IMG/VR virus record: IMGVR_UViG_2690316109_000014
Span: 1 to 10,365 of that record
Origin: a virus
Taxonomy: Duplodnaviria > Heunggongvirae > Uroviricota > Caudoviricetes
DNA length: 10,365 nucleotides
Strand: one strand, 5' to 3'
Part shown: piece by piece, positions 6,001 through 9,000 of the stretch
How the letters are laid out: each line of letters opens with the position of its first letter
How positions within the stretch are numbered: position 1 is the stretch's first letter
Position numbers: made by a program

Positions 6001-9000
6001 CATAGCTGAATGACGTCACCAGCCCCAGTGTGTCCGTAAACTCATAACGGTATTTCACGTTAATCCCGTTCAGATCATCACTGCCGGGGACGTTCGTCGA
6101 GGCATGAAGATACCCCGCGCTCAGCGTGGACTGATGTTCAGACGCCCATGCAGGCGCACCGGATACGGCCAGACAAATGGCTGCGGACAAAATTGCTGCA
6201 CAAACTTTACGCATAATTACCTCTCGCTTTTCTGCAATAAAAAAGGCGTCATTCCTGACGCCCTTTATTGGGGTTATAAATATTTCAACGAATACTGATG
6301 CCGGAAGCGGCTTTTTTGGTCACAATCACCGTACAGTCGGTGATATTGCCTGCCCCCTGATTGCCTTTCTGGAAAATCTTAAACTCCAGAGTGACGCTTC
6401 CCCTGCCACTCGGCATATCAATAACTGCACTGTAACTACCGGGAATGGCCCCTTTAGTTTCTCTGGATGCGATTAATACGCCGTTTTTGCGAACTTCAAA
6501 ACCATAACCCGTGTATCGCGTGCCTCCTGGGTTATTTCCGCTCCCCGGATCGTCATACGCTATACCGTTAAAAATAATGGGCGGAATAATAATCTGGCGG
6601 TCAAAGTTATGATCATCGCTGATGGTGACTGTAACCGTACCGTTTGGTGTTTCCGTGTTACCCCACGTACCGACTTTTTTCGGGAAGGCTTTTGATACAG
6701 CTTTAACGAAATCTCCTCTGACCTGGGTCGCCTCCAGCATGCCCTTAATCGTACAGTTCTGGTTAATCGTGACATTGTTGAGCGTTCCTGAGTTCGCATT
6801 CACACTGCCACTGATATCCGCATTTTTCGCCGTCAGTCTCCCGTCTGATGTCAGGGAAAATGCCGGAGGATTACCGCCGCTGGTAATGGTGGGGGCCGTC
6901 AGGCGTTTCAGGAACACTTCATTCATGAATATCTGATCGCCCTGACCAACAAACATCGGCTTTGTGTTGCCATTCGCAGGATTAATCATCGCAATCCTGT
7001 CTGCCGCCAGCAGCACCTGACTCTGCATGCCGTCGGGGGTGTTCTCAATACCGGCACCGATACCCGCAATATAAAGGCGTCCGTCCTGCATCTGCTGCAG
7101 CTTCACAGCCCACATGCTGTTCAGGTTATTATTTGTATCAACCTGAACTTTCTGTATCTGCTGGATCGCTGCACTCTGGTCTTCCAGTTTCTTATTGACG
7201 GTCTGTGTGATTTCATTGCTGACATCCGTAATGGACGTCCTGATTTCAGCCAGGTCAGGCGCAAGCTGACCGTTATCAATCTGCGTCCACAGCTCCTGAG
7301 CCAGATGGGTTTTCCCTATCTCGCCTTTGAAAAAATCCAGATAGCCGGATGCATCATCACTCGGCTGACCAACAGCCTCCACGAATGCCGATTTGCCAAC
7401 GGTGTTCACACTGCGGATATAAAAGTAATAATCATGGCCCGGTTTGATATTGATACTGGCGGCTATCCAGTACAGCGCCGTACCAAGATAGCGCGCTGTG
7501 GTTTCAACCTTCCTGATATCGGTAATCCGCTTTTCCGAGAACCAGAACTCAAACTGTACCGTCGGGTCATAAACGGCAAGATGCGGCGTGGCGGTTATCT
7601 GAAAATAGCCCGGCGTCAGCTCAATCCTCGACGGTGCTGCCGGTGCGGCAATCCGGAACGATACCGACGCCGGATCGCCCTGCTGCCCCCACGCATTTAC
7701 CGCCCGGACTGTCAGCCTGTAGTTCCCCAGCGCCAGTTGCCTGAAGCGGTATGTGGTTTCCGTCGTCCGGGCCGTGCTGACCAGCCGCTCACTGCCGTCG
7801 TCCGCTGTTACGGTCAGACGGAGCAGGAAGCTCACCCCCTTCACCACCTTCGGCGTGTCCCAGCGCGCCAGCACCTGATATTCCCCGCTGTCTGCGGTGA
7901 CTTCGGCAGTCAGGTGCTGCACCGCTGGCGGCGTGACACCATTCACCGTGCCGCTCTGGTCGCCGTCAAAGTGCGCCCCGTTATCCACGATGGCCTCTTT
8001 TTCCGGTACATGCTGCACGGCGGTGATGGCATACGTGCCGTCATCGTTCTCACGGATACTCACGCAGCGGAACAGGCGCTGGCGCAGCGTCGGCAGCTTC
8101 AGCCCCCATACGCTGTATCCGGCAACGCCGTCAGGAACACGGCTCACTTTCACCTTCACGCCGTCGGTGACGGACTGGACCTCCACGCTGACCGGACTCC
8201 CCTGCCCGTCAACCAGGCTTATCAGCGTGGTACCGGAAGATGGCAGCGTGATTTCACGGTCGAGCGTCAGCGTCCGGGTCTGGCTGTTCACCGCCAGCAC
8301 GCGCCCGCCGGTGCTGATACCGGCATAGTCATCATCGCAGATTTCAATGACATCGCCCGGTACATGGCGAAGCCCTTCGGCACCCACGCTGAAGTCCACG
8401 GTCTGCGTCTCCAGCAGCTCCGTTTTAATCAGCCACAGCCCGGCGCGGTGTGCCTGCCCCCGGCTGGTACAGCCAAAGGCATCCATCTTCGTGACGTTAC
8501 GACCGTAACGGAGAATGGCCTGCGTGTCCTCCACAAGCTCTGTCGCCGTCTCCCAGCCGTTATCCGGGTCAATCCAGTTCACCTCAACGGCATTATGGCG
8601 GTCTTTCAGGGCGCTGAAACTGTAGCGGAACGGCGCGCCATCATCCGGCATCACCACATTACTGCGGTTATAGGTCCACACCTTATCCGACGGTCGGTCC
8701 TGCACGAACGTCAGCGTCTGCCCGTTCCATACCGGCATACAGCGCATCGCCGAGCAGAAATCGCTGAGCACATCCCACGCCTTACGCTGTGTGGTCAGCC
8801 AGGCATTACAGGTGATGCGCGGCTCCGTGCCGCCAAAGCCGTCCGGCACTGACTGGTCGCAGTACTGGCCGATAAGATACAGCGCCCATTTATCCACATC
8901 CACCGCACCAAGACGTTTCCCCATGCCGTAGCGCGGATGGGTCAGCATATCCCACAGACACCAGGCCGGGTTGTTGCTGTATGCCGGTTTAAACGTTCCG

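Follow-up and report, generated by a model that had tools for sequence, protein, structure and literature searches.

A lambdoid tail-tip protein J with a lambda-like body, a long shaft and a 434-type tip predicted to use OmpC

Which outer-membrane receptor would be used by a lambdoid phage whose tail-tip protein J resembles that of lambda over most of its length, but not at its C-terminus? The question is raised by a stretch of 10,365 nucleotides (the window), positions 1 to 10,365 of the IMG/VR record IMGVR_UViG_2690316109_000014 (Caudoviricetes). The J trimer would form the central tail fibre, sealing the tail tip and attaching to the outer-membrane receptor, and receptor specificity is set by the C-terminus of J (PMC11101478, PMC3509688). 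The reading that we prefer, with a probability of roughly 0.85, is that the J of the window is a three-part mosaic carrying a 434-type tip, and that sequence comparison predicts adsorption to OmpC, not LamB.

The J gene and its parts are as follows (aa, residues of the J protein; the domain names follow the lambda gpJ structures, PMC11101478):

6285..9782, minus strand: complete J gene (tail tip / central tail fibre), defined by ORF search and translation, 1165 aa plus stop.
7374..9782, minus strand: lambda/434-like body (aa 1-803), hub and two FNIII/Ig domains; 97.1% identical to lambda and 98.2% to 434 over aa 1-800.
6948..7373, minus strand: 'long shaft' module (aa ~804-945), alpha-helical shaft and upper beta-prism fibre; 24-66% nucleotide identity to lambda and 434.
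7182..7274, minus strand: stretch with 28 extra residues (aa ~837-867), placed approximately by MAFFT alignment.
6790..6947, minus strand: conserved lower-fibre hinge (aa ~946-997); about 90% nucleotide identity to lambda and 434.
6288..6827, minus strand: 434-type receptor-binding block (aa 986-1165), fibre end and Ig-like RBD; predicted OmpC binder.

J is an ordinary, intact lambdoid tail-tip gene with an uninterrupted, full-length ORF. Its product matched the NCBIfam model lambda_TipJ (NF049904) at 2334 bits (curated cutoff 1950 bits), with aa 1-1165 aligned to positions 1-1163 of the 1163-position model. Six gpJ Pfam families (FNIII-A_GpJ, Phage-tail_3, Ig_J, Ig_J_second, Phage_Tail_Tip and Ig_GpJ_C) were found in the expected order, all above their gathering cutoffs, and Ig_GpJ_C spanned aa 1029-1164. 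The position of the gene fits the lambda order, in which J follows tail gene I and precedes lom and stf. A 515-aa ORF on the opposite strand (7305-8852, plus strand) lies inside the part of J with 55-64% GC and is taken to reflect base composition rather than a real gene.

The window J was compared with the lambda reference J (NC_001416) by protein alignment, segment by segment. The sequence-only reading of this DNA had described a near-lambda N-terminal part of about 800 residues, followed by about 300 divergent residues of which the final 150 or so differed most. The alignment bore out these three points: 777 of the first 800 residues were identical (97.1%), identity fell to 53.8% over the last ~300 residues, and the final ~150 residues were 40.3% identical to lambda J. 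The divergent C-terminus is therefore real, but it is not a single tail of steadily declining similarity, since two divergent blocks flank a conserved hinge. Identity to lambda J was 36% at aa 823-900, where 28 residues are absent from lambda, then rose to 65% at aa 901-960 and 83% at aa 961-1020, and dropped again to 40% (40.3%) with indels at aa 1021-1165. Across the LamB-type RBD of lambda (lambda J residues ~990-1132, which include the receptor-contact loops), 54 of 134 positions were identical (40%), with 11 gap positions.

These figures also dispose of the simplest alternative, namely that the gene encodes a LamB-binding lambda J with an ordinary lambda C-terminus. The sequence-only reading had itself raised this possibility, and full-length near-identity to lambda J would have borne it out. 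The NC_001416 protein is 40% identical over the last 150 residues, with indels, and lacks the 28-aa insertion found upstream; the alternative is refuted, with only a negligible chance left to it.

Joints between the parts of J were located by sliding 90-nt identity plots against lambda, 434 and mEp332, and by mismatch maps. In 90-nt windows, the body (gene nt 1-2408) is 90-100% identical to both lambda and 434. Divergence then begins abruptly at gene nt 2409, i.e. at window position 7374 and aa 803/804, directly after 116 nt that are identical to lambda. The earlier reading had confined the divergent region to 6285-7260, in the 3' third of J; the C-terminal location holds, but the divergence extends about 114 nt past 7260. 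From nt 2409 to about nt 2830, lambda and 434 are nearly the same as each other and both are unlike the window J. The hinge follows (gene nt ~2830-2990), and in the terminal block beyond it identity to lambda falls to 40-60%. Scattered mismatches to 434 end at nt 2955, and from nt 2994 the differences from lambda are dense; from nt 2956 onwards a single mismatch to 434 is followed by 91-92% identity in the last ~170 nt. Alignment thus yielded the mosaic joints that the first reading had hoped to find: one at nt 2409, and one between shaft and tip at nt 2956-2993, which corresponds to aa 986-998 of the window J and to lambda aa 958-970.

The second joint coincides with a site of known experimental effect. 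When lambda gpJ chimeras were joined after residue 964, use of LamB was lost and use of OmpC was gained (PMC11338833). Lambda residue 964 corresponds to residue 992 of the window J and falls inside the interval aa 986-998, so the natural joint lies at a site that is experimentally sufficient for the transfer of specificity.

Beyond this joint the protein is of 434 type. The block at aa ~986-1165 is 97% identical to the J of phage 434; within it, 140 of 145 residues of the RBD (aa 1021-1165) are identical, and just before the RBD 57 of 60 residues match at aa 961-1020. At the DNA level, identity over the last 525 nt is 97.5% with lambda h434 imm21 and complete (100%) with Kati, mEp332 and PhiR68_2. 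Work by Hantke in 1978 is reportedly the source cited for the use of OmpC by 434 J. Exchange of lambda J for 434 J confers binding to OmpC, the receptor of 434 (PMC11101478, PMC3509688), and OmpC is the secondary receptor class among the lambdoid mEp phages. From the ~97% RBD identity to 434 together with the published J exchanges, the window J is predicted to use OmpC and not LamB. The earlier proposal of a receptor other than LamB is supported by the same comparison, as the RBD is 40% identical to lambda versus 96.6% (140/145) to the OmpC user 434; LamB recognition would not be expected of an RBD so divergent from that of lambda and separated from it by indels.

The main caveat on this prediction is a set of five RBD substitutions relative to 434 (window residue first): N1047D, R1127G, I1136V, Q1138H and G1143R. 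A different allele range, or even a different porin, is conceivable, since published gpJ variants discriminate between OmpC alleles. We therefore considered that a 434-like tip might recognise another receptor or only certain OmpC alleles (e.g. OmpF, or only non-K-12 OmpC), either through these five changes in aa 1021-1165 or through the different shaft. Natural gpJ variants A8 and 1A2 differ in their OmpC-allele range, OmpC-using gpJ chimeras show allele-specific ranges (PMC11338833), and a few point mutations suffice to give lambda J the use of OmpF (PMC11101478). On the other side, 97% identity over an Ig-like RBD normally preserves the receptor; the identical RBD block is found in mEp332, which has K-12 MG1655 as its host on record, and 434 is placed likewise; and the presence of this RBD on four kinds of shaft speaks against the receptor being dictated by the shaft. 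We consider a changed receptor or a restricted allele range unlikely and keep to OmpC as the predicted receptor. In the papers found, no receptor is given for mEp332 or Kati, nor for any ev or PhiR phage. The study by Refardt treats mEp332 as a lambdoid phage of E. coli K-12, carried as an MG1655 prophage and counted by plaque assay.

Solved structures place the tip in the same family without making it an A8 tip. Statements on the structure of the window J draw on homology to the solved lambda and A8 gpJ structures and are to be read as predictions. With LamB-binding lambda J (8IYK, 8XCJ, 8XCK), the window J shares its family, domain order, tail-gene context and hinge. Of the solved structures, A8 gpJ (9wca/9wcb; a gpJ713 chimera) scored best against the C-terminal 365 aa, with E = 4e-104, followed by lambda gpJ713 (8xcj/8xck). 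A8 is an engineered lambda chimera with a natural OmpC-binding tip, joined in the same hinge, but it has the short shaft of lambda. Its RBD also belongs to a different family: the A8-like database proteins P0099 and P0110 are 44-46% identical to the window J over aa 1011-1165, and alignment to 9wca was equally divergent.

The second exchanged module is the shaft, whose segment is 95 aa long, compared with 67 aa in the lambda/434 type. The 28 additional residues map to the region equivalent to lambda aa 841-861, which in lambda is the refolding part of the shaft. Among E. coli prophages, the segment from the second FNIII domain to the 'DGxxYxAGIG' motif measures 67, 95 or 168 aa (compared here for window positions 7083-7373, minus strand, and proteins P0059, P0068 and P0081), and the 168-aa form includes a unit resembling a 24-letter protein sequence (letters not shown) in two or three diverged copies. 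An AF2 monomer model of aa 713-1165 was computed from a 23-sequence alignment and used for secondary structure only, its mean pLDDT being 48; such low confidence is expected of a monomer model of an intertwined trimer. The model contained helices of low confidence at aa 812-824, 827-836 and 841-888, which take in the inserted residues, and a beta-sandwich at aa ~1024-1158 with pLDDT 66-90; moderate confidence was reached in the RBD only. Simple heptad scoring of the shaft gave no clear register.

Shaft and tip assort independently among prophages. DNA of the long shaft was found at 95% nucleotide identity or more in 53 phage records, and at this identity it accompanies non-434 tips in 1H12, Lambda_2G7a, Lambda_ev203, PhiR55_1, ev017, PhiR63_2 and PPompW phages. 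Conversely, the 434-type tip is combined with a short shaft in 434, lambda h434, many Stx1a and Stx2c phages, Perceval and 2B8. The proteins show the same pattern. Among 22 aligned database homologues, an identical RBD (155/155) was joined to a short shaft (P0075), to another long shaft of 59% identity (P0052) and to an extra-long shaft (P0068), and an identical shaft (140/140) was joined to an A8-like RBD of 44% identity (P0110). Across these 22 homologues the hinge is 71-100% identical. Modules that are exchanged around a hinge that is conserved throughout point to homologous recombination in conserved linkers. Such exchange is the standard picture of lambdoid mosaicism.

On this basis, the window J would have arisen as a three-part mosaic by homologous recombination between prophage J alleles. 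Its parts would be a lambda/434-like hub and FNIII body, a long shaft with upper fibre, and a 434-type tip after the hinge, the hinge acting as the putative recombination linker between the shaft and tip modules. It is conceivable, though we hold it to be rather improbable, that the shaft is an adaptive, exchangeable spacer or transducer module and that a long shaft combined with a 434 tip might shift host range beyond the choice of receptor. Such a spacer might determine how far the central fibre extends compared with the side fibres or with O-antigen and capsule, or might tune the trigger threshold; the free assortment of shaft and tip is equally compatible with neutrality.

Neither the allele nor its combination of parts is rare. 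The whole J gene is 95-97% identical at the nucleotide level in 11 named phages (15 GenBank records): Kati, PhiR34_1, PhiR68_2, mEp332, PhiR42_1, phiSTEC1575-Stx2k, ev243, ev099, Ayreon, cdtI and phi458. These share the 1165-aa architecture, and the differences between them and the window J are scattered substitutions in the N-terminal body. In mEp332 (PV340541), whose record names K-12 MG1655 as host, the last 365 residues of J (aa 801 to the end) are 100% identical to the window J, aa 1-800 are 97.5% identical, and the 3' 1.1 kb of DNA is 98-100% identical; just upstream of the joint, the body of the window J is closer to 434 and lambda than to mEp332. Phage 434 J (OL657226; lambda h434 imm21, OM418627) is 91% identical overall, with 98% at aa 1-800 and 96.6% in the RBD. 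Relative to 434, a patch of about 0.55 kb (aa ~804-985, window ~6828-7373) has been replaced, bringing in the long shaft; within it the shaft is 28 residues longer and identity is 36-65% (38% at aa 823-900).

Among 5426 complete E. coli genomes, 434-type tip DNA was present in 2090, or roughly 40% (at least 80% coverage), with 565 records at 99% identity or more, and long-shaft DNA was present in 3562; one protein-database cluster at 98% identity contained 2965 member sequences. The long shaft is the majority form and the 1132-aa lambda J is the unusual one, in agreement with the 1163 positions of the curated model. Four main J clusters have been described among gut lambda-like phages (Mathieu et al., PMC6969025). 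At the sequence level there is nothing new here: this J allele is already known and extremely common. That frequency, the classical h434 type of the tip and the existence of a second exchanged module, the long shaft, are what the first reading of the sequence overlooked.

The genes around J were annotated as follows:

9843..10365, minus strand: 3' part of tail gene I, cut by the end of the window, directly upstream of J; 172/173 residues identical to lambda gpI 51-223.
5615..6214, minus strand: lom (Ail/Lom outer-membrane protein), directly downstream of J; Ail_Lom E = 1e-122, 97% identical to 434.
4237..5556, minus strand: side tail fibre (Stf) with collagen-like repeats, 434-type; 95% identical to 434.
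3966..4235, minus strand: 89-aa chaperone of tail-fibre assembly, 434-type; 92% identity to the protein annotated in 434 as 'tail fiber assembly chaperone'.
3213-3902, minus strand: 229-aa ORF with a C-terminal NleG domain (PF06416, E = 2e-43).
1757-3030, minus strand: IS3-family (IS2-like) element, with overlapping orfA (HTH_Tnp_1) and orfB (rve integrase core).
965-1738, minus strand: 257-aa ORF in the low-GC cargo region.
626-868, minus strand: 80-aa ORF matching the C-terminal half of Caudo_TAP only (positions 56-130 of 131).
262-510, plus strand: DinI-like 82-aa gene, adjoining the 80-aa Caudo_TAP ORF.

From 3924 to 10365 the window is 95.3% identical to phage 434, in two pieces, and the only real difference from 434 in host recognition is the ~0.55-kb patch inside J. 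The Pfam domains of Stf were phage_tail_N, Collagen and Phage_fiber_C; the last of these occurs twice in tandem genes (window 3966-5556, minus strand), at the C-terminus of Stf (aa 365-428) and again in the 89-aa chaperone.

The NleG ORF directly follows the fibre chaperone gene on its downstream side, where GC is 37-44%. NleG domains belong to a type III secretion effector family, and the ORF suggests that the host is an attaching-and-effacing E. coli, a descendant of one, or a relative. The IS2-like element sits between the NleG gene and the 257-aa ORF, and in related Stx2 phages this locus is occupied by IS2 pseudogenes. Searches with the 257-aa ORF (965-1738) gave no match in Pfam, NCBIfam or PDB sequences. 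Homologues of 86-97% identity were found in phage 2B8 and five Stx1a phages, where they are hypothetical or unannotated. Phage cdtI has cif at the corresponding place, and the 257-aa ORF was compared with Cif, to which it shows no similarity; it may be an uncharacterised effector or moron. The 80-aa Caudo_TAP ORF is probably left over from an stf/tfa module that was displaced.

The IS2-like element, the truncated tfa fragment and the low-GC effector cargo downstream bear on a further alternative, in which the J of a defective prophage is decaying and the divergence at its 3' end reflects drift, not a functional host-range module. The window as a whole is also unmatched among complete E. coli genomes, the best match reaching 83% coverage at 95% identity. 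The J gene itself speaks against decay: the reading frame is open throughout and covers the curated TipJ model from end to end, its 3' 1.1 kb is 98-100% identical to mEp332 J and common to phages deposited as isolates, and its differences from lambda fall into blocks with sharp joints instead of being spread diffusely. We regard decay as very unlikely, and a functional, mosaic J with a 434-type tip remains the preferred reading.

A virion carrying this J would adsorb irreversibly to OmpC through it. Triggering is inferred to be lambda-like, by analogy with the lambda structures: the trimeric RBD would dock on the trimeric porin, here OmpC; opening at the RBD base would be relayed through the beta-prism fibre, whereupon the helical shaft would flip and partly refold; and the FNIII strings would separate, opening the tail tip.

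The finding is a case of a textbook phenomenon, the exchange of host-range modules at the 3' end of lambdoid J genes. For annotation, a prophage J of this kind should be labelled as h434/OmpC-type with the common long shaft, and not as LamB-type. For the engineering of gpJ it provides a context in which the short shaft and the LamB tip of lambda are minority forms among E. coli prophages, and in which shaft and tip are separate, exchangeable cassettes joined at a conserved hinge.
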